From: Gammaproteobacteria bacterium | Lineage (GTDB): Bacteria; Pseudomonadota; Gammaproteobacteria; Ga0077536 | DNA length: 64,000 nucleotides | NCBI GenBank assembly: GCA_963662545.2 | Contig: CAXXLL010000002.1 | Coordinates: 1,472,001-1,536,000 of the forward strand | Direction of reading: 5' to 3' | Shown here: positions 9,878-59,179 of the stretch, in pieces | Numbering within the stretch: the first letter of the stretch is position 1 | How the letters are laid out: each line of letters opens with the position of its first letter | Made by a program: the position numbers and the translations under genes | Notes under the pieces: model-generated | The model's input: only the letters and a program-made list of their open reading frames with translations | What the model was told of the DNA's origin: nothing | Databases searched by the model: none

Positions 9878-11896
9878 TTATCCGCGGGTGACATGGACTT
9901 CGGTCGAATGCACGCTGGTGCTCCCACCCATGTCGGCCATGCGCGCCCGGTGAACGAAATTCACGTTAGTTCGCGACCCTTCGAGGCGCGGCCAGCGTCC
10001 CTTGTAGGAGACGACAGTGCCGGGCAATACGCGGTCGTCGATCCGTGCCGTAAGTTCAATCGCGCCGGTTTTGTTCGATACCTTGACCGGCCCGCCGTCA
10101 TCAATTCCCAGACGTTCGGCATCGGCGGGATGCAGGTGCAGCGCGGCCGGCCCTGACTGCTCGTCGATGTGTGGATCATTCGAATAAGAGTCGTTCATCC
10201 GCCATTTTGACGCTGGCGTCAGCAATCTCATGCCGCCCTTGCCCGCCGGGGCATCCGCCCACGGCTGCGGCGTGCGCGGTAGACCCATTTCCTCCGCCTG
10301 CGCTGAGGCGATTTCAATCTTGCCGCTGGGGGTGTCGAATTTCTGATCAGCGAACATCGGCATCGGTTCATCGCCGAGCGCGAAATAACCACGGCGCTTG
10401 AGCTCCTCGAAATCGAAGCCGGGGGCCATCTGCCCCATCATCGTCGCGAGCAGGGTTTCGTCGGATTCAAACAAGGCCGGTTCGTCGAGCTTCATTGCCC
10501 CGGCGAGGCGGCGGAAAATTTCTGCGTTTGGTAGTGACTCGCCCATGGGTTCGGAGATTTTGGCCTGCGCCCCCATGTGAAGATGAAAATAACTGAAAGT
10601 GAGGTCATCGTATTCGAGGAAGCTGGCAGCGGGCAGTACGATATCCGCGCAAGTCGCGGTATCGGTCATGAAGACGTCGCAGACGACCGTGAAGAGATCG
10701 TCGCGTTCGAGCGCCTTGCGCAGACGCGTTTGCTCGGGCGCAGAAGCGAGCGGGTTGGTATTCCACGAGAAAAAGACATTGAATTCGTCGGGATCGGCCA
10801 AGCGGCTGGCGAGTTCCATGTGACTGACTGTCTTACCGCCGTCCTTTGCGAGGGCTGCACCGCCGAGCCAGTCGAGGTCGATACCGGCGAAGATCGGTGT
10901 GATATTGAGATAACAGAAACCGGCGCCGGGCTTGCCGACGTTGCCGGTCACAGCCGGCAGCAGGCCGGCCGCCCGCATGACGTTGCCGCCTGTCGCCTGT
11001 CGCTGCAGTGCCTGGCCACACCAGAGCAGGGACGGACCCTCCCCATAGATCGCGGCCGCGCGCTCGATGTCGGCGACAGGCACGCCGCTCTTTTCTGCGC
11101 CCCAGGCGGGCGTCGCGCGTTCGATGTCGTCATTGATTTCCTCGATCCCGACGGTATGTTCGGCAATGTAGGCCTCGTCGAAGCGGCCGTCGCGTTTGAG
11201 GCAATGCAGGAGGCTGAAAGCCAGCGCCGCGTCGGTGCCGGGCCGGGGTTGCAGATGCAGGTCCGCGGCCTCGGCCGTTTCCGTACGAATGGGATCGATG
11301 ACGATCAGCTTGCCCGGCGCTTCCGGCAGCCAGTGATCGTGCGCGTGCGGCGCTGAATGTGACGGGTTTGCGCCCCAGACCAGGATGCATTTCGCATCCT
11401 TCGCGGTACGGGGATCGAAGCCCATGACGGAATTACCGAACTGCAAGTGCCAGGCGACGTGTCCGGCCGCGTTGCAGATGCTGTCCGGGTCGACCTCCGA
11501 GGCGCCGAGATAGGTGAACAGACGATTGGGAAAGAGATATCCGATGAGCGACAAGGTGCCGGAGTAGTGCGTGTGCAGGATGGAGGCCGCGCCGCGGTTG
11601 TCAATCGCGCCCTGCATCTTCTCCGCAACTGTCCGCAAAGCTTCGTCCCAGGAGATCGGTTCGAACGCAGTCGAACCCCTGGCTCCGACCCGACGTAAGG
11701 GCGTCTGCAGCCGGGCATTGGGATCCTGCCACACGCCGTTATAGGCGACGGCACATTTGCTGCAGAGCTTGCCCCGCGAGACCGGGTGGTCCGGGTCGCC
11801 CAGTACGCGGTGTCGGCCGTCGTCGCGGCGTTCGACGACGATACCGCAACCGTCATAACAGTCCCTCGGACAATTGGTCTTAATGCGATTGATCAT
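9878..11896 (-). CDS. Molybdopterin-dependent oxidoreductase (DMSO reductase superfamily)
   Basis: 4Fe-4S motif CPRDCYDGC...LC, IDPIRTETA, RPGTDAALA, ADIVLPA, LHPADA. Confidence 0.93.
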   Translation of the reverse strand: MINRIKTNCPRDCYDGCGIVVERRDDGRHRVLGDPDHPVSRGKLCSKCAVAYNGVWQDPNARLQTPLRRVGARGSTAFEPISWDEALRTVAEKMQGAIDNRGAASILHTHYSGTLSLIGYLFPNRLFTYLGASEVDPDSICNAAGHVAWHLQFGNSVMGFDPRTAKDAKCILVWGANPSHSAPHAHDHWLPEAPGKLIVIDPIRTETAEAADLHLQPRPGTDAALAFSLLHCLKRDGRFDEAYIAEHTVGIEEINDDIERATPAWGAEKSGVPVADIERAAAIYGEGPSLLWCGQALQRQATGGNVMRAAGLLPAVTGNVGKPGAGFCYLNITPIFAGIDLDWLGGAALAKDGGKTVSHMELASRLADPDEFNVFFSWNTNPLASAPEQTRLRKALERDDLFTVVCDVFMTDTATCADIVLPAASFLEYDDLTFSYFHLHMGAQAKISEPMGESLPNAEIFRRLAGAMKLDEPALFESDETLLATMMGQMAPGFDFEELKRRGYFALGDEPMPMFADQKFDTPSGKIEIASAQAEEMGLPRTPQPWADAPAGKGGMRLLTPASKWRMNDSYSNDPHIDEQSGPAALHLHPADAERLGIDDGGPVKVSNKTGAIELTARIDDRVLPGTVVSYKGRWPRLEGSRTNVNFVHRARMADMGGSTSVHSTEVHVTRG

Positions 11897-13503: not shown

Positions 13504-14214
13504 ATGCCAAGATATCTACGCGCCCTATTGCCCGGCTATCCCCATCACATCATTCAGCGCGGCCACGATCGCCAGTCGGTATTCGCTAACGACTCGGATT
13601 TTCGTGTCTACCTGGATAATCTCAGCGAACAAATCAATGTACTGAATGTTTCTCTGTTCAGTTACTGCCTGATGACCAACCCTATTCATCTTCTGGTTCA
13701 ACCGGAACGAGACGGCGCCGATCTGTCGCGCCTGATGCGCATTGTGGCAGCGAGACAAACCCGATACATCAATCGGCTGGAGCACCGGACAGGTACGCTT
13801 TGGGAAGGGCGGTTCAAGTGCAGCATTGTCGATTTCGAGAAGTATTTGCTTGCCTGTTGCCGCTATATCGAATTGAACCCGGTTCGCGCCGGGATGGTAC
13901 GCGAACCGGCGGAATATACGTGGTCGAGTTATCGCCAGCGTGTTGGTCTTGAGGCACCAGCAATAGCGTTGGCATCACTGCGTTTGGACAGCAATCAGGC
14001 TTGAGGCGAAGACGAAGAACGTCGATGCTACGAAATGTTCGTCGCTGAAGAGCGATCAACTCATCAGAACGAATCAATCGCAACGGCCGTTAATCGCAAT
14101 CAGCTCACAGGCGATAACCGGTTCCGTGAAGAGATAGAACAGAAACTTGGCAGGCGCGTTAATGATCGAGCGCCCGGCAGACCAAGAAAACCGGCGGCGG
14201 AGGATATCGCTTGA
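13504..14214 (+). pseudogene. REP-associated tyrosine transposase (RAYT, Y1 HUH), inactivated
   Basis: HHIIQRGHDR, YCLMTNPIHLL (HUH His to Pro), LWEGRFK, RYIELNPVRAG, WSSY. In-frame TGA at 14002, after which the same frame continues with the typical tail NRNQLTG...GRPRK to TGA at 14214. Confidence 0.92.
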
Positions 14215-14245
14215 AAATAAACCTGACACCTTTTTCTTTTTCTTT
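14215..14245. repeat. Inverted REP-like copy with T-rich stutter
   Basis: AAATAAACCTGACACCTTTTTCTTTTT is the reverse complement of 12730-12756 at 26/27 positions. Confidence 0.88.
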
Positions 14246-14289
14246 CCCGGGGAGGCTTGGATTAAAAACAAAAACCCCGCACTGAGGCG

Positions 14290-15718
14290 CAATGCTGTTC
14301 ACTTAAGAGGAATAGCCTGTCGATTGATGGGGTAATGGGTTTTTGAAATCTTAACGGCCCTAGGCCTCGATGGCCTAGGGCGTTTTTCTATAAACAGGTC
14401 ACCCAAACATCCTCTGAGTTCCTTTAGCCGCCTGGGTGTGTGGCCAGGCGATACGGCGCCAGCCATCACGATCAGCTGTGTGGCAATAAACTGAAAAGCA
14501 AATTTGAAGCTCATATCAGCGGGTGACCGGTGGTGTTCGACAGCGGCCAGAGAGGCTTCCCTGCGGATCAGGTTATAAGCGAGCAGCAAGCCCCAGAGTT
14601 CTTGATAGACCAAGTCAACCTTCTTACTACGAAGGGTGATCGCATTGTTTTGCATCGAGCTTTTAATATCTCTAAAACCCAACTCAATTTCCCAACGTTC
14701 ATGATATAAATTGGCGACCTGCTGGGCGCTATAGTGTGCGGCGGGCAAAGAAGTGAATACCGTCTTTTCCTTCCCTGCAACATCGTAGGTAAGCGCGCGA
14801 GCAAGCCAATACTCAGGTAAGGACGGATGGCGCTTCCTGGCCTGATGCGAGACCTTCATTTTCACGAGGCGGTCACCTTTGCCATATTGTTCAATCACCT
14901 CATAAACCAGGTTCTTCTTGGCTGGGATTAACCAATGACGTTGATGGCCTTTCTCACTGATATCAAGGAGCAATTTCGCACTGAAAAAGCCTTTATCTAA
15001 GAGGGTTATAGACTGATTAGGGATCCCCGCAATAAATTCTTCAGCGATCCGAATTTCCCCTTTCCGATAGGGGCTGATAGCGGCGTCAGCAATGACATGT
15101 GACCGGACATTCATCAACGCCACCAGTCTTAACATCGGGAAGGGCGTTTGGTACTTGGTGCCCGTGTTGCCCGAGCCAAAATGTTCACGTAATTGCGGCG
15201 ACTCTTGGGTGCGAAATAACGCGCCATCAATCGCAAACAGCTGCAAGCCATTCCAATCATCTTGCGGGTAACGCTCATGACCCCAGACCTGTGCGCATTG
15301 CCTGAACAACCATTTCATCGGCTCCTCACCCAGACGTTGTCGTGCTTGGGATAGCGCACTACGAGCCAATAATTCTTCTGTTGCCAGACCTTCCGCACAA
15401 ATATTTAGGCGCCTGGCCACTTCACTGATCGGTTCGTTTCGGAACATCGCCATGCCGATCACCAACCACAGCACCATATCTTCAGGTAAGCGTCGGCGAC
15501 GGATCGTCGCGTGTGACGATAATGATAGGGACGTTTTTATCCACTGTTTGGGGAGATGGTCGATCAGGACATCAAATGACCGGCCAAAATTATCTGAAAA
15601 CGCCTGCGTTTCACCAATCGCCTGGAATAAAGACACAAAAAATCCGGTATCAAAATCAATTGATACCGGATACTGATCCTGCTTTTACCCTAATTCAATG
15701 CTTAACTGATCAGCATTG
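14290..15718 (-). mobile_element. IS4-family insertion sequence, 1429 bp, 12-bp TSD
   Basis: TIR CAATGCTGTTCACTTAAG / CTTAACTGATCAGCATTG; CGCACTGAGGCG duplicated at 14278-14289 and 15719-15730. Confidence 0.95.
14299..15636 (-). CDS. IS4 family DDE transposase
   Basis: FAIDG, LLDKGF, YHERWEIELGFRDIK (YREK motif); RRRRLP N-terminal domain. Confidence 0.96.
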   Translation of the reverse strand: MSLFQAIGETQAFSDNFGRSFDVLIDHLPKQWIKTSLSLSSHATIRRRRLPEDMVLWLVIGMAMFRNEPISEVARRLNICAEGLATEELLARSALSQARQRLGEEPMKWLFRQCAQVWGHERYPQDDWNGLQLFAIDGALFRTQESPQLREHFGSGNTGTKYQTPFPMLRLVALMNVRSHVIADAAISPYRKGEIRIAEEFIAGIPNQSITLLDKGFFSAKLLLDISEKGHQRHWLIPAKKNLVYEVIEQYGKGDRLVKMKVSHQARKRHPSLPEYWLARALTYDVAGKEKTVFTSLPAAHYSAQQVANLYHERWEIELGFRDIKSSMQNNAITLRSKKVDLVYQELWGLLLAYNLIRREASLAAVEHHRSPADMSFKFAFQFIATQLIVMAGAVSPGHTPRRLKELRGCLGDLFIEKRPRPSRPRAVKISKTHYPINRQAIPLK

Positions 15719-15763: not shown

Positions 15764-16372
15764 TTAAGCTGCTTTACGCCTGCGAAAACCCAGCCCGGCT
15801 ACGGCTAAACCCATCAAGGCAAGGGTGGTGGGTTCCGGCGTCGTAACCCATAGTTCCGAGGTCTCGATCTCAAGCACCCAGTTTGTAGGGTCAACGTTCA
15901 CGGTGATGGTGTTGATACCGCTGACTAGATAGGCAGTCACGTCGAATATTGACCACGTAAGTAACGTAATGCCCGCAAGCGCCCCAGGGCCCGGCTGGAG
16001 ATTAAACAAGGCGCTATAGAGATTCTGGTTGGTCAATGTTCCAACAAGCATGCCGTTGACAATAACTTCGTCGATCTCCGGTCCCACACCATTGTTGTCC
16101 TGCTGTTCGTCTATTCCCTCGGCAGTGATATGGAGAATTGCTTCCTTCAAATGGTTCTCGTCGAAAATGATGTTGTGTTGCCAGGATACCGATGGGCCAC
16201 ATTGGAGTGGTATGCCGCCCGGATCTAACGCCGGATTAACCGAACAGCCCACCCCAAACACGTCTACCGTGTCGTGTATCATGGCTGCGCTGACACTACC
16301 AATGGCAGCTAACGAAAGAATGCAAACCGTTGCGGTCGCAAACGTGAATCTGAAAAGCTGTCGTGCTCTCAT
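15764..16372 (-). CDS. PEP-CTERM sorting-domain surface protein
   Basis: Start MRARQ after GAGGAG; signal peptide ending VSA; C-terminus TPEPTTLALMGLAVAGLGFRRRKAA. Confidence 0.92.
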   Translation of the reverse strand: MRARQLFRFTFATATVCILSLAAIGSVSAAMIHDTVDVFGVGCSVNPALDPGGIPLQCGPSVSWQHNIIFDENHLKEAILHITAEGIDEQQDNNGVGPEIDEVIVNGMLVGTLTNQNLYSALFNLQPGPGALAGITLLTWSIFDVTAYLVSGINTITVNVDPTNWVLEIETSELWVTTPEPTTLALMGLAVAGLGFRRRKAA

Positions 16373-16423
16373 GTTTTTGCTCTCCTCTCGTCTCGCCCCA
16401 ATAAAACCCATCTATCAAAATGG

Positions 16424-35400: not shown

Positions 35401-36786
35401 GAGTTATTGTCAAAAGTGGTGTTCAGGCGGTTGAATCAAGCGGCGACCTGATTGACCCTTGTCACCTCGATACCATCTTCAAATTTAACTCCAGTAATCA
35501 CCTTGGCCAGGTAGTCGAATCCACGTAGGCGTCGCCAATTCTTCTGCGCACACCGCCCCAGCTTGAACATCATATGGAGCATGCCGTCCCGAGAGAGACC
35601 GCCCTTGGAGCGCCGGGTCCGGTGCCGGATCGTAGCGAAGGTGGATTCAATCGGATTGCTCGTGCGAATGCTTTGCCAATGTGGTGCCGGAAAATCATAG
35701 AACGCCAGCAACTCCTCACGGTCTTTCTGTAGGCACAGGGTCGCCTTGGGATACTTCGGTTCATAGGTCTTGAGGAACAGCTCGAACGCCTTCTCGGCGT
35801 CGGCCTTTGTCGCGGCCTGCCAGATCGCGTGCAGGGCTTGCTTGGCTTTGGCCTGTGCTGACTTCGGTAGGCAGTTCAGCACGTTCATCGTCTTGTGCAT
35901 CCAGCAGCGTTGCTGGCGGGTCTCACCGTAGACTTCCTCCAGTGCGGCCCAGAAGCCCATGGCACCGTCCCCGATCGCCAGCTTGGGAATATTCATCCCG
36001 CGTGACTTCAATTTCAGCAACACCTCGCGCCAGCTCTGCGTGGACTCCCGCACACCATCCTCCATCGCCAAAAAACGCTTCTCGCCTCGCTCATTGACGC
36101 CGATCACCACCAACGCACACAGCTTCGTGTGCTCCGCCCGCAGGCCACTGTAGACACCGTCCGCCCACACCTACACCCAGCGGTCTTGGTCCAATCGCCC
36201 CTCGCACCAGTCGCGGTATTCTTGCGCCCACACCTGCTTCAAGCGCGACACGGTGCTCGCCGACAGGCCCTTCGCCTGCGGCCCCAACAAAACTTCCAGC
36301 GCAGCGCCCATTTCGCCACTGGAAACGCCCTTCAAATACAGCCACGGCACGGCCGCCTCCAAGGTTGTTGTCTTGCGCACATACGGCGGCACCAGCGCTG
36401 AACGGAAGGTCACCGGCTCGCCGAGCTTCGAACGAACCTTCGGTATCCTGACCGTGACCGTCCCCAAGCCCGTCTGCAACTGTCGCTCCGGCAAATAGCC
36501 GTTCCGAACGACACCCGCTTTGTCGTCCGCCGTGCGATGTCCTGAATACTGCGCCATATATTCTGCCAGCTCGATTTCAACCGCTCGTTCAATCAGAGCC
36601 CGAGCACCGTTTCTCAAGACCTCCGTCAACGGATCTGGTATTCCTTCTCGACCTGATAATTCAACAACGTTACTCTCTCTCATGGTGGCGTATCCTCTTT
36701 GGTTGGCTTGCTGCTTGGTAACAACATTTCAACCAGATACGCCGCCTTTATTCAATTCGCTCAAACACCAGATTCAGTTATAACTC
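35401..36786 (-). mobile_element. IS256-family insertion sequence, about 1386 bp
   Basis: Imperfect TIR GAGTTATTGTCAAAAGTGGTGTT / AACACCAGATTCAGTTATAACTC; TGGGCGGTGC repeated at 35391-35400 and 36787-36796. Confidence 0.92.
35436..36683 (-). pseudogene. IS256 transposase with an in-frame amber stop
   Basis: RNGY, PKVR, YLKGVS, WV*VWADG (TAG at 36171-36173), IGDG, QRCWMH, RTSNPIES; both ORF halves are in one frame. Confidence 0.94.
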
Positions 36787-47555: not shown

Positions 47556-48940
47556 GGGTCTACGCGGAAACGTGTGGGTTGATATTGGCATTTCTGGGTA
47601 GTGGCGGAAGAAATGCCGCAATGATTTTCAGTTTGAGGAATTCCTCATCACGATAGCCATAGGCGCGTCGTTGCAGGACCCGGATTTTGTTGTTGACCCC
47701 TTCGACCAATCCAAGACTGACTTTATTCTTAGCATCACAATAGGAAGCAATGCCATCCCAATGGGATTCAATCAGCTCAGCAAACTTGCGATACGGCGCC
47801 AATCGCTGCCATTTCAGACTGTCCTTCCAGCGCTCGAAAAAGGCACGCGCGCCGCGCTCGGTACGGTAGTCCCAGAGTTGGCCGAAGGTTTCCTTGAGGA
47901 CGTAGGCGGTGTTCAGACGCCGGTTGGCCTGGAGCAGTTTTTTCAGGGCTCGTCTGCCATCCAGATTCAGGTTCTCGCGTCGCGAGAGCAAGGTATATCG
48001 CTGGCCTTTGATGTAACTCCTGTCCTTGCCGCGGAGACGTTTGTATTCACGGCGCCGGACTTCATCGAGAGCCTTTGAGAGGTGGCGCATGATATGGAAC
48101 TTGTCATAGATGATCCGCGCCTGCGGTGCGTTGTTCATGACCGAGTTACGGAACGGCTTCCACATGTCCATCGCCGCCAGTTCGATGCGAGCGCTCTTGT
48201 TCTCGCCCAATGCCTGGAAAAACAGGTCGATGTCAGCCTCTTTGCGACCTTCACCACCGACCCAGATAGGACGCCCCCGATCCAGGTCACTGACGATGAC
48301 CCGGTAGTTATGTCCTTTGCGGATGGAGATCTCATCAATACCGATGGCCCGGGGTGCTGGCATGCCCGCCAGCTCAACCTGCTTTTGCATGTACAGCTTA
48401 TCGAGGTCTTTCACCGTGCTGTGGTGCAGGCGTTCCCTCTCGGCGACAGCCTGGTTCGGCATGTCCCGGCACAGCTTGCCCACCTGCATGGCAAAGCGCT
48501 GCGTATAGCGAGGGTTCTTTGCCAGCCAGTCAAGATGTTCTACCTGCACGCCGCCGCACCTCCGGCAACTGACACGCCAGCGTTCGAACTCCAGGTAGAT
48601 TCGCCATCCGGCAACTGACAGGTCTCGTACTCGCAGCACCTTCTTGTCGTAACGCCCGCGGCACCGGTGAGCACAGTGAGAACAGATCGCTGTTTTTTTC
48701 GCCTCTTGAGTTGGATCACACGGGCATACCGATCACCAAACATGCCCACCAATTTCGATGCGGCGGTAAAACCAGGGAACGCAAACAGCGCTCGGATCGA
48801 CTTGGGATTCTTCATGGCCTTAGCCTACCCACAAAATGAAACCACTTTCACCCCATACGAAATCTCTGAATGTCTACATGATTTCAATGGTTTACACTTG
48901 GTCTAATTCAGAATTTACCCACATGAATCCGCGTAGACCC
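47556..48940 (-). mobile_element. ISL3-family insertion sequence, 1385 bp, 8-bp TSD
   Basis: TIR GGGTCTACGCGGAAACGTGTGGGT / ACCCACATGAATCCGCGTAGACCC; ACAATTAT at 47548-47555 and 48941-48948. Confidence 0.95.
47560..48815 (-). CDS. ISL3 transposase, split by a -1 frameshift at an A7 run
   Basis: GIDE, AMDMW, YDKFH, EGVNNKI..QRRAYG; the upstream ORF MKNPK joins the CSHC zinc-finger frame at CGA AAA AAA C. Confidence 0.9.
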
Positions 48941-49072
48941 ACAATTATTAACAATTGTGGCCCTTTGTCACCGGGTCTGTAAGTTGATCCGCCGTTCCGC
49001 AGGTGTATAGGATTGTGGCGGGACTGAATGAAAGTTTATGGTATTACCGCGAAATTCGAGGGAGGATCGGAA

Positions 49073-50086
49073 ATGCGAGCCTGGATAAAGAATAACGGCT
49101 GGAACAGAAACCTGATCAGACTGGGCCTGGTGCTCGCGCTTATGCTGGCATTCACGACGTCGCAGGCGACTCCGCTCAATTTTTATTTCTTCGGCGACAG
49201 CCTCACGGATAGCGGTAGTTCCGTATTGAATCTCTTTTTCAATCCTACCGCGCCCCCGTCGCCGCCTTACAGTGGCAGCAGCTTTTCCAACGGGCCGGTA
49301 TGGGCTGAAACCGTTGGGGCTGCCTACGGTGTGCCGATTACGTGGGGCGTCAATAATTTCGCCGTCGGCGGCGCTGTGAGTGCCGACCTCAACGCTCCGG
49401 TTACTGCCGGCCAGCAGCTCGCGACGACGGTCGCCACCGGGGGGGTGCTCGGACAAACCGCACATTTCTTATCGACCACCGGGGGCGTCGCCGACCCCAA
49501 TGCGCTCTACAACATCTGGATGGGCGGCAATGACTTTCTCAATTTTCTGAACGCGCCACCGTCGGACCCTGTGGCGTTGATTAACGGTATCCTCAGTAAC
49601 ATCGGTACCGGCATCGGCACCTTGGTTGCAGCCGGTGCTCAAAAAATTCTGTTGATGAATCTACCGGATCTCAGCGTATCGCCCGCCGTACCGGACCCGG
49701 CCAAGGCCTTAGTGAGCGCCTTGGTTCAAAATTACAACCTGGCGCTAAGCGCTTTCGCATTGGGTTTGGAAGGTCAACTGGGGATCGATATCTGGACATT
49801 CGATGTTTTCGGTTTATTGGCTGCCAACAGCGGCAGTTGGTTGGATTCGGACGGTTTCCTAGGTATCGGTCCGGGTGAATCTGCCCTGACGTGCCTGAGT
49901 GTTCTTGCATGCGCGTTAGGGGGCGATAGTTCGCCATACCTCCTGTTCGACGATATTCATCCAACCGAAGAGGTCCATGCTTTGATCGGCAACGCGGTCG
50001 TGGCCCATATACCAGAGCCTTCGACCCTATTGCTGGCGGGTTTAGCCGTGGCCGGATTGGGCTTCCAGCGCCGGAAAGCCGCGTAG
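49073..50086 (+). CDS. SGNH/GDSL hydrolase with PEP-CTERM sorting domain
   Basis: Signal peptide; FGDSLTDSG, FSNGPVW, NFAVGGA, GGNDF, FDDIHPT; IPEPSTLLLAGLAVAGLGFQRRKAA. Confidence 0.95.
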   Translation: MRAWIKNNGWNRNLIRLGLVLALMLAFTTSQATPLNFYFFGDSLTDSGSSVLNLFFNPTAPPSPPYSGSSFSNGPVWAETVGAAYGVPITWGVNNFAVGGAVSADLNAPVTAGQQLATTVATGGVLGQTAHFLSTTGGVADPNALYNIWMGGNDFLNFLNAPPSDPVALINGILSNIGTGIGTLVAAGAQKILLMNLPDLSVSPAVPDPAKALVSALVQNYNLALSAFALGLEGQLGIDIWTFDVFGLLAANSGSWLDSDGFLGIGPGESALTCLSVLACALGGDSSPYLLFDDIHPTEEVHALIGNAVVAHIPEPSTLLLAGLAVAGLGFQRRKAA

Positions 50087-57374: not shown

Positions 57375-57726
57375 CGCGGACTTGGGGTAGTCTACGAACG
57401 AACACTGGAATCAACGGCAATGCGTATCGCTTCGTCTTCGATTTTGAAAACCAACGCGCGGCCAGTAGATCTCTTGAGTTTTTTTGCGTAGGTTGTTGGT
57501 CCTCGAGGTGTGTCGTCAATCCCCGAAATCGTCACTTCCAGATTCGCTAGAGGTCTTCACTTTACGCGTGAATACTCGCTGGATTGGCTTTGATCGCCCT
57601 CAAAAAAATCCCCCCAATAGGAGCTTACGTCACCGGCGAGCGCGCGAAGTTGAGAAACATCTTCGTGTCATACCCCGCGTTTGTTGCTATCAGTTGGGGA
57701 GGAAACCTGCGGGAGGTCCGTCGGAA

Positions 57727-57870
57727 ATGTCAACAGCCAAATCCACGCATGGGCATTGCGCTCCGGGCTTCCATGCCGTCGGTGCTGCGTTTGAGCGCAA
57801 TATGGTGGACGGAGACATTGGCGCGGCTTTCGTGCTCTACCAGGGCGGCGCGATTAAAGTCGATGCGCGG
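57727..57870 (+). pseudogene. N-terminal fragment of a beta-lactamase-family serine hydrolase
   Basis: MSTAKSTHGHCAPGFHAVGAAFERNM...IGAAFVLYQGGAIKVD after GGAGG RBS; similarity breaks off before any SxxK motif. Confidence 0.6.
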
Positions 57871-57964
57871 TGGCGGGTGCGGCGAGTTGGAAAGTCTGGA
57901 GGTTGCAGCGTATGCGCTGCTTCCAGTCGTGATGCGGTTCAGTAATTCATAAAGGAGAGAGCAG

Positions 57965-58273
57965 ATGAGGAGTGTTTCAAACCTGGCTTTGGGAACCTTG
58001 TTCATATTGTTCGCAGTCGGAACCATCGATATTTCCGTTGCAGTTGCCGATGGGGATCTCGACATGGTCTTTCAAGTTGAAGGAATGACCTGAGGCAGCT
58101 GTGCACGGACGGTCCGTGAGACCATTAAAAAAATTGCTGGGGTGACGCGCGTTCGTGTTGACGTGCAACAAAAGCGCGCCTGGGTGAGCTGTAGCTCCGA
58201 GGTATCCGCCCAGCAAGTGATGGCGGCGATTGCATCGAATGGAAGATATCAAGCGAAGCTTGTCGAGGACTAA
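57965..58273 (+). CDS. Secreted heavy-metal-associated (MerP/CopZ-like) selenoprotein, Sec at codon 43
   Basis: AAGGAGAG RBS; signal peptide; VEGMT[TGA]GSC..V...I.KIAGV..V.V...K.A.V.......QVMAAI...GRY continues in frame to TAA at 58273 (102 aa). Confidence 0.85.
58091..58120 (+). promoter_or_regulatory. Candidate bacterial SECIS element
   Basis: TGA, 10 nt, then hairpin CACGGA-CGG-TCCGTG with a G-containing loop followed by U. Confidence 0.7.
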
Positions 58274-58384
58274 CTCCCTCACACGGAACGGTTCCCCTTC
58301 AGCAACCTTGAGACAACTTTCAGGGTTCGATAAACGTCGCTGCGAGTAACAGTACGACAGAATGTCTTAACCGTTACAAAAAGC

Positions 58385-59179
58385 CTAAAACAATCCCGGT
58401 GCCTTCACGTTTAGCGCGCGCTGCATGACCTCGAGTTCCTTATCGCGATCCGGAAACGGTGCGGGACGCGTAAACAGCTTGTCCTGCTTTAATTCCTCGA
58501 CCACTTCTTCGCTGCGCGGGTAGGCTTCGCCGTATTTGTTCATGAAAAAGTGATTTTCGAACGGTTGGCGTGGACGCTGGCCGCCGGCTTCCCAGTGTTC
58601 CATCGGATAACCAACGCACTGCATCAATAGCAGGCGGCAGTGATCGGGTATACCAATTGCCTTGAGGATCTCATCCCCTTCCGGCGTGCCGAGAAAACAC
58701 GTTCCAAGACCGAGTTCATAGGCCATGAGGGTTGCCTGGGCCATACCTTGGCCGCAGTCGATTTCATTCAAGCCCGGCTGCTTTAGGAAGTCCTTAATGC
58801 CTTCGAAGACGGGCAGGAATTTTTCTTCCAGGGTCTTGTGTCTTATGTCTTTGGGACCAAATCCGAGCGCCCCGATGTCGACCAGCTGGCGCAGGCGATC
58901 GGCTTGTCCGTCGACCATGCCTGGGTCGCAATACCAGACGATTACGACCGGCGCGATCCGTAGCTGCCAGCCGACGACGACGGCTTTCAACGAATCGAGC
59001 ACCTCTTTGGATGCAGTTTCGCGATGAATGGCCACGGCCTTCAGGGTCTGCACGTTGCCCCAGTGCGTCGCGATGCGGGCGGCCTCGAACATCATCTGGA
59101 TTTTCTCCGGCTCCACCGCTTTGTAGGGCTTCAAATACCGGATCGAACGGCGGCGGCCGATAGCTTCCCTTAATTCCAT
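58385..59179 (-). CDS. Nitroreductase family protein
   Basis: EAIGRRRSIR, APVVIV, QATLMAYELGLGTC, VGYP. Confidence 0.9.
   Translation of the reverse strand: MELREAIGRRRSIRYLKPYKAVEPEKIQMMFEAARIATHWGNVQTLKAVAIHRETASKEVLDSLKAVVVGWQLRIAPVVIVWYCDPGMVDGQADRLRQLVDIGALGFGPKDIRHKTLEEKFLPVFEGIKDFLKQPGLNEIDCGQGMAQATLMAYELGLGTCFLGTPEGDEILKAIGIPDHCRLLLMQCVGYPMEHWEAGGQRPRQPFENHFFMNKYGEAYPRSEEVVEELKQDKLFTRPAPFPDRDKELEVMQRALNVKAPGLF

Follow-up and report, generated by a model that had tools for sequence, protein, structure and literature searches.

The locus

At positions 57965-58273 of a 64-kb stretch of DNA from Gammaproteobacteria bacterium (assembly GCA_963662545.2, contig CAXXLL010000002.1) lies what is very probably, judging from its sequence, a genuine and conserved selenoprotein gene of the heavy-metal-associated (HMA) fold that annotation has missed. 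The whole 64-kb stretch is called the window, and coordinates without a contig label refer to it. The window's own genome is G000, with C2 the label of a G000 contig; G001 and G002 are congeners. Specifically, the reading frame contains a single TGA, predicted to be read as selenocysteine (Sec, U), at the first Cys position of an HMA metal-binding motif. Three copies of the gene are known: the window copy, a paralog in G000, and a copy in G002. The features of the window copy are as follows.

57965-58273, forward strand: selenoprotein coding sequence, 102 codons plus TAA (58271-58273), with a single in-frame TGA; translated with TGA as U
57952-57957, forward strand: Shine-Dalgarno site AAGGAG, 7 nt ahead of the ATG at 57965, identified from sequence
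57965-58048, forward strand: probable signal peptide of the general secretory (Sec) type, residues 1-28, assigned by eye, with cleavage after AVA
58049-58270, forward strand: mature HMA domain (ferredoxin-like beta-alpha-beta-beta-alpha-beta), residues 29-102, from AlphaFold2 (AF2) secondary structure and Foldseek
58091-58093, forward strand: TGA, Sec codon 43, in the context VEGMT-TGA-GS-TGT; pairs with Cys46 (TGT, 58100-58102) as a U-G-S-C site
58190-58192, forward strand: third Cys, Cys76, at the end of strand 3 (E71-76 in the model), kept in all three copies

The original prediction, made from the letters of the window, had described a ribosome-binding site and a signal peptide; the site is present, as are an ATG and an N-terminus that by eye resembles a signal peptide. 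As it also stated, the frame runs on for 59 further codons from the TGA to the TAA, and the standard list of open reading frames (ORFs) misses the gene, breaking it into pieces of 42 and 43 amino acids. At the Shine-Dalgarno region, the stretch TAAAGGAGAGAGCAGATG is unchanged among all three copies. The N-terminus reads MRSVSNLALGTLFILFAVGTIDISVAVA, followed by the probable cut and DGD. By eye, it comprises MRS, an 18-residue hydrophobic core, and AVA / D; AF2 models residues 1-30 with a local confidence (pLDDT) below 55. A promoter scan of the locus returned none, and terminator-like sites appeared only on the opposite strand.

An HMA domain with a predicted selenocysteine at the metal site

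With C standing in for U, the protein matches PF00403 (HMA) at 45 bits, against a gathering cut-off of 24.8 (E 1.5e-11), and the same model applied to the genome with TGA read through scores 36.4 bits. When the protein is aligned to solved HMA domains, U43 and C46 coincide with both Cys residues of GMTCxxC in the ATP7B, CopA, CopZ, and MerP chains. Profile match and alignment together confirm that the TGA occupies the first Cys of the HMA motif. Cys stands at position 43 in 42 of 42 aligned distant homologs, an invariance by construction, as these sequences were fetched by a pattern containing FQVEGMTC. Codon 46 is TGT, so there is no second Sec.

An AF2 model, built from a 45-sequence alignment, contains the elements E32-39, H44-55, E60-66, E71-76, H82-91, and E96-100, with pLDDT above 90 over residues 32-100. 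The best Foldseek match in the PDB is the oxidized (disulfide) MerP of Ralstonia metallidurans (1osd_A; TM-score 0.92, root-mean-square deviation 1.0 A, 72 residues), followed by domains of ATP7B, CopZ, and PacS. At E <= 0.001 there are 71 matching PDB chains, and those listed are all HMA domains. The NCBIfam matches fall below their cut-offs, and NF041046 is absent among them.

CopZ_AFE_1862 (NF047957): 55.9 bits, cut-off 85
UxxU_metal_bind (NF041115): 50 bits, cut-off 95
MerP (TIGR02052): 38.6 bits, cut-off 92.55
MerT_CopZ_Se (NF045683): 33 bits, cut-off 375; HMA part only, without the MerT membrane part

Because the gene is cut at codon 42 and falls below every curated NCBIfam selenoprotein or HMA equivalog, annotation pipelines will keep missing it.

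The nearest Cys forms share about 40-43% identity. They comprise single-HMA proteins that are exported or lipoproteins, MerT-HMA fusions, and the N-terminal domains of CopA-type ATPases; one of the single-HMA proteins adjoins a MerR gene. Pattern scans of genomes and metagenomes, which are partly blind to TGA forms given that one of the six patterns fixed Cys at the site, recovered Cys forms only; identity did not exceed 52% in genomes and, over segments of 31 residues, reached 65% in metagenomes. A scripted search for UxxC in an HMA context among 182 loci found solely the three known copies. A word-indexed search for proteins of similar length returned no match. An exhaustive search of representative proteins gave 3505 matches, of which the best 150 are all multi-HMA proteins of at least 214 amino acids and at most 40% identity; these best 150 include no close single-domain relative and offer no functional clue.

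Exported single-HMA proteins of another form, 139-143 amino acids long, occur at four loci (L028, L030, L031, and L033) in two small-genome genera of the same family, g7 and g4. In them, a His-rich stretch precedes a VKGMVCDFC motif. The P1B ATPase model matches 0 of 7 g4 genomes and 0 of 6 g7 genomes.

The in-frame TGA is conserved

Among 61 related genomes, full-length matches occur at three sites, each with one in-frame TGA. Beyond the window copy, these are the G000 paralog at C2:2211093-2211398, 79% identical to the window copy, and the G002 copy, which is 84% identical and syntenic, with the same AMP-ligase, nitroreductase, and short-chain dehydrogenase/reductase genes alongside. None of the three has lost its start, Shine-Dalgarno site, or stop. 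In addition, 42-residue proteins form four clusters (15 member sequences, 86-90% identical), all four of which terminate in ...VEGMT, a protein-level observation which indicates relatives whose gene calls end at the same codon. Thus, in the homolog comparison that the original prediction had proposed, every close full-length copy carries TGA, every truncated cluster ends there, and none shows TGC or TGT. G001, the remaining genome of the genus (89% complete), yielded no match, and no further close one was found in the 78 other family genomes or in a class-wide sample (401 genomes drawn, 400 scored).

The codons downstream of the TGA bear the mark of purifying selection. Pairwise, codons 44-102 show 15-19 synonymous versus 6.5-11 nonsynonymous differences, and pN/pS is 0.24, 0.12, and 0.11 in the three comparisons (range 0.11-0.24). 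The other two frames past the TGA contain 4-6 stops. Public contigs from three further studies carry 57400-58400 with 0 differences, so the TGA is not an assembly error. Two of those contigs break at 58081-58123, where depth doubles, as expected for a stretch common to both paralogs. The same interval, 57400-58400, is at least partly present in 20 of 21 listed public runs from 7 studies, and three runs labelled sponge metagenome contain 26-41% of its sampled words.

Similarity between the paralog and the window copy spans only from about 18 nt before the ATG to about 25 nt after the stop, and the sequence of the paralog locus suggests a small duplicated cassette. The paralog (L037, G000:C2:2209593-2212898) lies directly downstream of a DDE transposase gene (PF01609) on the opposite strand, and a flavin oxidoreductase gene also adjoins it.

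Upstream of the window copy, the 590 bp that separate it from the AMP-ligase gene (57375-57964) are 96% identical to G002 and are better conserved than the selenoprotein gene itself, which differs at 33 of 309 nt between window and G002. A family search of 57375-57964 gave no match. An inverted repeat, GCAGCG-TATG-CGCTGC, lies within it at 57907-57922. Two upstream ORFs, 57484-57945 and 57584-57952, looked like a serine hydrolase N-terminus, a likeness we dropped, as Pfam gave no match at E <= 1.

Selenocysteine decoding in G000

The genome possesses the Sec machinery that the original prediction had asked for. Specifically, G000 carries tRNA-Sec at C2:1267634 (62 bits; ARAGORN anticodon tca), adjacent selA (587 bits) and selB (417 bits) genes at C2:1243926-1247203, and selD (283 bits), all four above curated cut-offs. 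In a 761-amino-acid frame (C2:1272180-1274462; L221:5181-7463, reverse strand), SelD follows a pyridine-nucleotide-disulfide oxidoreductase domain that forms the N-terminal part of the fusion, an arrangement resembling the Ndh-SelD fusion mentioned in the Global Ocean Sampling (GOS) selenoproteome paper (PMC2398784).

The HMA pair is not alone. Read-through frames of the genome, checked against NCBIfam and Pfam, yielded at least 12 further G000 selenoprotein genes with a family match across the TGA (L009, L208-L216, L222, and L223).

AhpD_rel_CFYUT, 3 genes: 352, 205, and 343 bits against a cut-off of 175; one directly upstream of selA
AhpC/TSA, 4 genes: two UxxC and two TxxU; the TxxU pair with signal-peptide-like N-termini
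YciW/CMD-like, 3 genes: under the equivalog cut-off
PrdB-like, 1 gene: under the cut-off
SelT/W/H-family (SelW-like), 1 gene: over the cut-off

Given the signal-peptide-like N-termini of the two TxxU peroxiredoxins, export is not peculiar to the HMA pair among these selenoproteins. Three other candidates (L217, L218, and L219) were not supported as selenoproteins, and 40 candidates from a within-genome BLAST for Sec/Cys paralogs all looked like repeats or shadow frames. G000 also has 12 PF00384 molybdopterin oxidoreductase genes, including one at 9878-11893 of the window. No in-frame stop interrupts the domain in any of the 12, so a Sec-type formate dehydrogenase was not detected.

Two overlapping hairpins downstream of the TGA are candidates for the selenocysteine insertion sequence (SECIS).

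58104-58118, forward strand: hairpin A, CACGGA-CGG-UCCGUG, beginning 10 nt past the TGA; free energy -7.8 kcal/mol
58108-58126, forward strand: hairpin B, GACGGUC[CGUGA]GACCAUU (core GGUC[CGUGA]GACC), the preferred candidate, overlapping A

Hairpin A is the one named in the original prediction. It exists where it was placed; the SECIS role assigned to it probably belongs to hairpin B. The free energy of hairpin A is -7.8 kcal/mol in the window, -5.7 in G002, and -7.8 in the paralog, and the hairpin tolerates all three substitutions: G002 turns a C-G pair at the base into U-G, the paralog differs in the loop, and the window changes fall outside the hairpin. Using as criterion a perfect hairpin of at least 6 bp with a G-containing loop that starts 16-37 nt after the TGA, 334 of 8337 sampled G000 TGAs (4.0%) have a comparable structure, so hairpin A alone is weak evidence.

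Hairpin B presents the apical loop CGUGA (58115-58119), which starts 24 nt after the U. In G002 the hairpin is a perfect 7-bp stem, GACGGUC[CGUGA]GACCGUC, at -11.6 kcal/mol. A 5-nt apical loop closed by C-G recurs in seven other G000 selenoprotein genes: AhpD-related 1, 2, and 3, the PrdB-like and SelW-like genes, and both TxxU peroxiredoxins. Their loops read CGGGA, CGUGA, or CGUGC and start 20-27 nt after the U. The PrdB-like gene, AhpD-related 2, and the two peroxiredoxin genes have the identical C[CGUGA]G loop, and the three others have CGUGC or CGGGA. A strict scan, which requires a stem of 4 or more contiguous pairs and a loop CG[GU]G[ACG] beginning 18-30 nt past the U, recovers 4 of 10 independently identified comparators plus the window HMA gene, with a background of 437 in 168380 G000 TGAs (0.26%). 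The two TxxU peroxiredoxins are not independent support, as they were discovered through the strict scan itself. Bacterial SECIS elements follow general rules, which served for comparison; an Rfam search returned only noise (E >= 2). Because hairpin B has the loop form of the genome's own selenoprotein genes, we prefer it, and it is the more likely SECIS of the two. Taken together, decoding of the UGA as Sec is well supported.

The central claim of the original prediction, a hidden, exported, MerP-like UxxC selenoprotein, therefore survives on both counts on which it might have failed, the Sec machinery and the homologous codon.

Metal handling in the genome

The original prediction noted no mer or cop partner in the window, and this holds: none of the 54 window ORFs of at least 150 amino acids is a metal-handling gene. 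Across G000, HMA matches are confined to the two Sec genes. No P-type ATPase was found in this 5.58-Mb, 96.85% complete genome with PF00122 or TIGR01525 (0 matches each), models that matched all 14 control genomes, and tblastn with two full CopA-type proteins returned only the two HMA genes. In the family, the P1B ATPase model TIGR01525 matches 61 of 81 genomes; in this genus, 0 of 3. A search of G000 for MerT (PF02411) gave 0 matches, and MerA has none at the cut-off, the best scoring 405.7 bits against 454.45. That best match, C2:2482270-2484537, combines a membrane domain that is DedA/TVP38-like by eye with a pyridine-nucleotide-disulfide oxidoreductase and lacks the C-terminal Cys pair.

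G000 encodes one heavy-metal system of the resistance-nodulation-division (RND) class, at C2:1261783-1267602. Its pump is of the CzcA/CusA family (1210 bits), its adaptor is CusB-like and includes a heavy-metal-binding domain, and the third component is an outer-membrane factor. Genes for such a factor and for an RND pump indicate a diderm envelope. This CusCBA-like operon ends about 30 nt before tRNA-Sec, with a MerR regulator and two YbjQ genes upstream, all of it between selAB and selD. A 32-kb neighborhood (C2:1242747-1274462; L009, L220, and L221) thereby holds Sec machinery and metal efflux together. Its order is an AhpD-related selenoprotein, selA, selB, a MacB-type ATP-binding cassette/HlyD set, MerR, two YbjQ "heavy-metal-binding" genes, an M48 peptidase, the CusC/CusB/CusA-like operon, tRNA-Sec, an IS1595 transposase, and selD.

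Elsewhere in the window, insertion sequence genes lie at 13504-15633, 35436-36680, and 47560-48636 (IS200-like, IS4, Mutator-family transposase in two ORFs, and ISL3), and PEP-CTERM proteins are encoded at 15764-16408 and 49028-50083.

A putative periplasmic soft-metal protein and its alternatives

The notion is that ribosomes would start at the ATG at 57965 and, at the UGA at 58091, SelB bound to Sec-tRNA(Sec) would be recruited by the downstream SECIS hairpin, most likely GGUC[CGUGA]GACC. Translation would then continue to the TAA, yielding a 102-residue precursor with a Sec-type signal peptide. Export and cleavage, as we infer them, would leave an HMA domain of about 74 residues in the periplasm. 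There, Sec43 and Cys46 in the beta1-alpha1 loop would form a selenolate/thiolate pair that would bind a soft metal with linear two-coordinate geometry, as in MerP and CopZ; the candidate ions are Cu(I), Ag(I), and Hg(II). The protein would thereby serve to buffer or chaperone metal in the periplasm. We consider this overall explanation, in which an intact selenoprotein gene supplies an exported HMA domain as periplasmic soft-metal buffer or chaperone, to be likely. For soft-metal binding in the periplasm taken by itself, we lean toward it. The RND and HMA context supports, though it does not show, a periplasmic soft-metal role. As to the metal, the xSC form of the motif is closer to ATP7B and CopA domains than to the MTCxxCP of the MerP proteins compared, a weak hint of Cu(I) or Ag(I). 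Hand-over of the metal to the single CusCBA-like pump is conceivable, if doubtful.

Several observations weigh against this explanation. The family is tiny, consisting of close kin in one genus and present in two of its three genomes; with so few close relatives, conservation has little depth and the copies do not count as independent. By codon usage, the part past the TGA scores approximately zero (0.02), ranking 3416 of 22865 read-through frames. The sole metatranscriptome contig spans 58231-58400 only. The stem of hairpin B is short in the window, with 4 contiguous pairs at -3.9 kcal/mol, and in the paralog (-5.4 kcal/mol) it has an A-C mismatch and fails the 4-pair rule. Across the three related sequences, no compensatory change backs either hairpin, and folding of the 60 nt past the TGA does not surpass that of shuffled sequence (z +1.65). 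With respect to function, no mer, cop, or other metal gene stands beside any of the three copies.

One alternative accepts a genuine exported selenoprotein and assigns it a redox task: UxxC would cycle between selenol/thiol and selenenylsulfide, and the protein would be a periplasmic oxidoreductase or a peroxide/disulfide relay. All 12 other selenoproteins found in G000 belong to redox families, and the best structural match is the oxidized, disulfide form of MerP. However, the GMTCxxC metal signature is complete apart from the Sec, and the family and PDB matches include no HMA-fold oxidoreductase. We judge the redox role unlikely.

It is quite improbable that the protein is MerP proper, that is, an Hg-specific periplasmic scavenger feeding a mercury uptake or reduction system elsewhere in the genome. 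Such a role would fit the architecture of a signal peptide plus a single HMA domain, the top rank of MerP among fold matches, and the MerT-HMA fusions or MerR neighbors among some of the nearest Cys relatives. Against it stand the score far under the TIGR02052 cut-off, the failure to find MerT or, at the cut-off, MerA, and the motif, which is more ATP7B/CopA-like than MerP-like.

Read-through without Sec, by near-cognate Trp, Cys, or Arg or by Cys carried on tRNA-Sec, would give a thiol or other variant. Nothing specific favors this idea, and it is very unlikely in the face of a complete Sec machinery, a position held by a catalytic or ligand Cys in all homologs, and an apical loop common to validated G000 selenoprotein genes. 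That a nonsense mutation or a sequencing error has cut a former CxxC HMA gene down to a 42-residue peptide is scarcely credible: gene callers do truncate the gene and codon usage scores low after the TGA, but the same TGA is found in both paralogs, the congener, and the contigs of three other studies, selection acts on the downstream codons, start, Shine-Dalgarno site, and stop are intact in every copy, and the downstream loop has the SECIS form of G000.

Relation to known proteins

The putative soft-metal protein of the window resembles MerP (TIGR02052; PDB 1osd and 1afi) in having a signal peptide and a single HMA domain of about 72 residues with the site in the beta1-alpha1 loop. Unlike MerP, it has Sec for the first Cys, and no merT, merA, or merR lies nearby. 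The best sequence-family and PDB sequence matches are CopZ-type proteins (NF047957; TIGR00003) and the HMA domains of Cu ATPases (ATP7B), with which it shares a GMTCxSC-type motif; CopZ, however, is cytosolic, whereas the window protein would be exported, and no P1B ATPase recipient was found. CusF, the periplasmic Cu(I)/Ag(I) chaperone of CusCBA, is a small periplasmic soft-metal carrier whose fold is unrelated to HMA and is a functional analog only.

HMA-type proteins bearing Sec are already catalogued, namely a UxxU protein, a P1B ATPase, and a MerT fusion. We take the Sec of the P1B ATPase to lie inside its HMA domain. The ATPase has the UxxC motif of the window protein, according to the portions of PMC2398784, PMC9312934, and PMC13188914 consulted here. 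Both it and the MerT/CopZ fusion NF045683 are domains of membrane transporters, whereas the window protein would be a free exported domain. NF041115, the UxxU protein (a "putative mercuric reductase" family), is likewise a standalone HMA-type protein with Sec in its CxxC, as given in part of PMC13188914; the window protein differs in its single Sec (UxxC) and its probable signal peptide.

In the GOS selenoproteome (PMC2398784), a "Mercuric transport protein MerP" is represented by 2 sequences from 1 sample, and a putative MerT is listed along with a UxxC cation ATPase. That "MerP," according to the supplement, consists of two identical 33-residue read fragments (...AGTUCQSG...) with no likeness by eye to the window protein, and we set it aside. 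The abundant "UGSC-containing" family shares the tetrapeptide with the window protein, but the GOS authors (PMC2398784) regard it as probably of thioredoxin fold. The sections of the 2022 and 2026 catalogs at hand (PMC9312934 and PMC13188914) contain the UxxU metal-binding protein (NF041115), the UxxC P1B ATPase, and a MerT selenoprotein; the words MerP and HMA are absent from the portion of the 2026 text (PMC13188914) covered. MerT-family selenoproteins are mentioned in the part of the Haft preprint seen (10.1101/2022.07.06.499078), and the excerpt of the Olavius paper (PMC1976440) adds nothing on HMA. A search of the literature, limited in its collection and terms, did not turn up any account of a single-HMA selenoprotein that is exported and has UxxC. 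The window gene and its two relatives are thus a new, genus-restricted family inside a known kind, the HMA-domain selenoproteins.

Meaning for selenium and metal biology

With this gene, a classical soft-metal site would contain a selenolate in a protein predicted to be exported, which offers a natural Sec/Cys pair with which to ask how selenium affects metal affinity, exchange rate, and oxidation resistance in the periplasm. The lineage-specific SECIS loop C[CGUGA/C]G offers a simple way to find the remaining selenoproteins of the group. The searches found two HMA domains in the 5.6-Mb genome, one of them encoded by this gene, and no CopA-type pump, which makes the organism an interesting case of metal homeostasis without P-type ATPases. 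We speculate, with considerable reserve, that in this lineage, in which no P-type ATPase was found, soft-metal defense may be periplasmic and selenium dependent, with the two Sec-HMA proteins holding Cu(I), Ag(I), or Hg(II) in a selenolate/thiolate clamp and feeding the CusCBA-like pump in place of CusF and CopZ. If so, these proteins would constitute a Sec-bearing, HMA-fold substitute for both.

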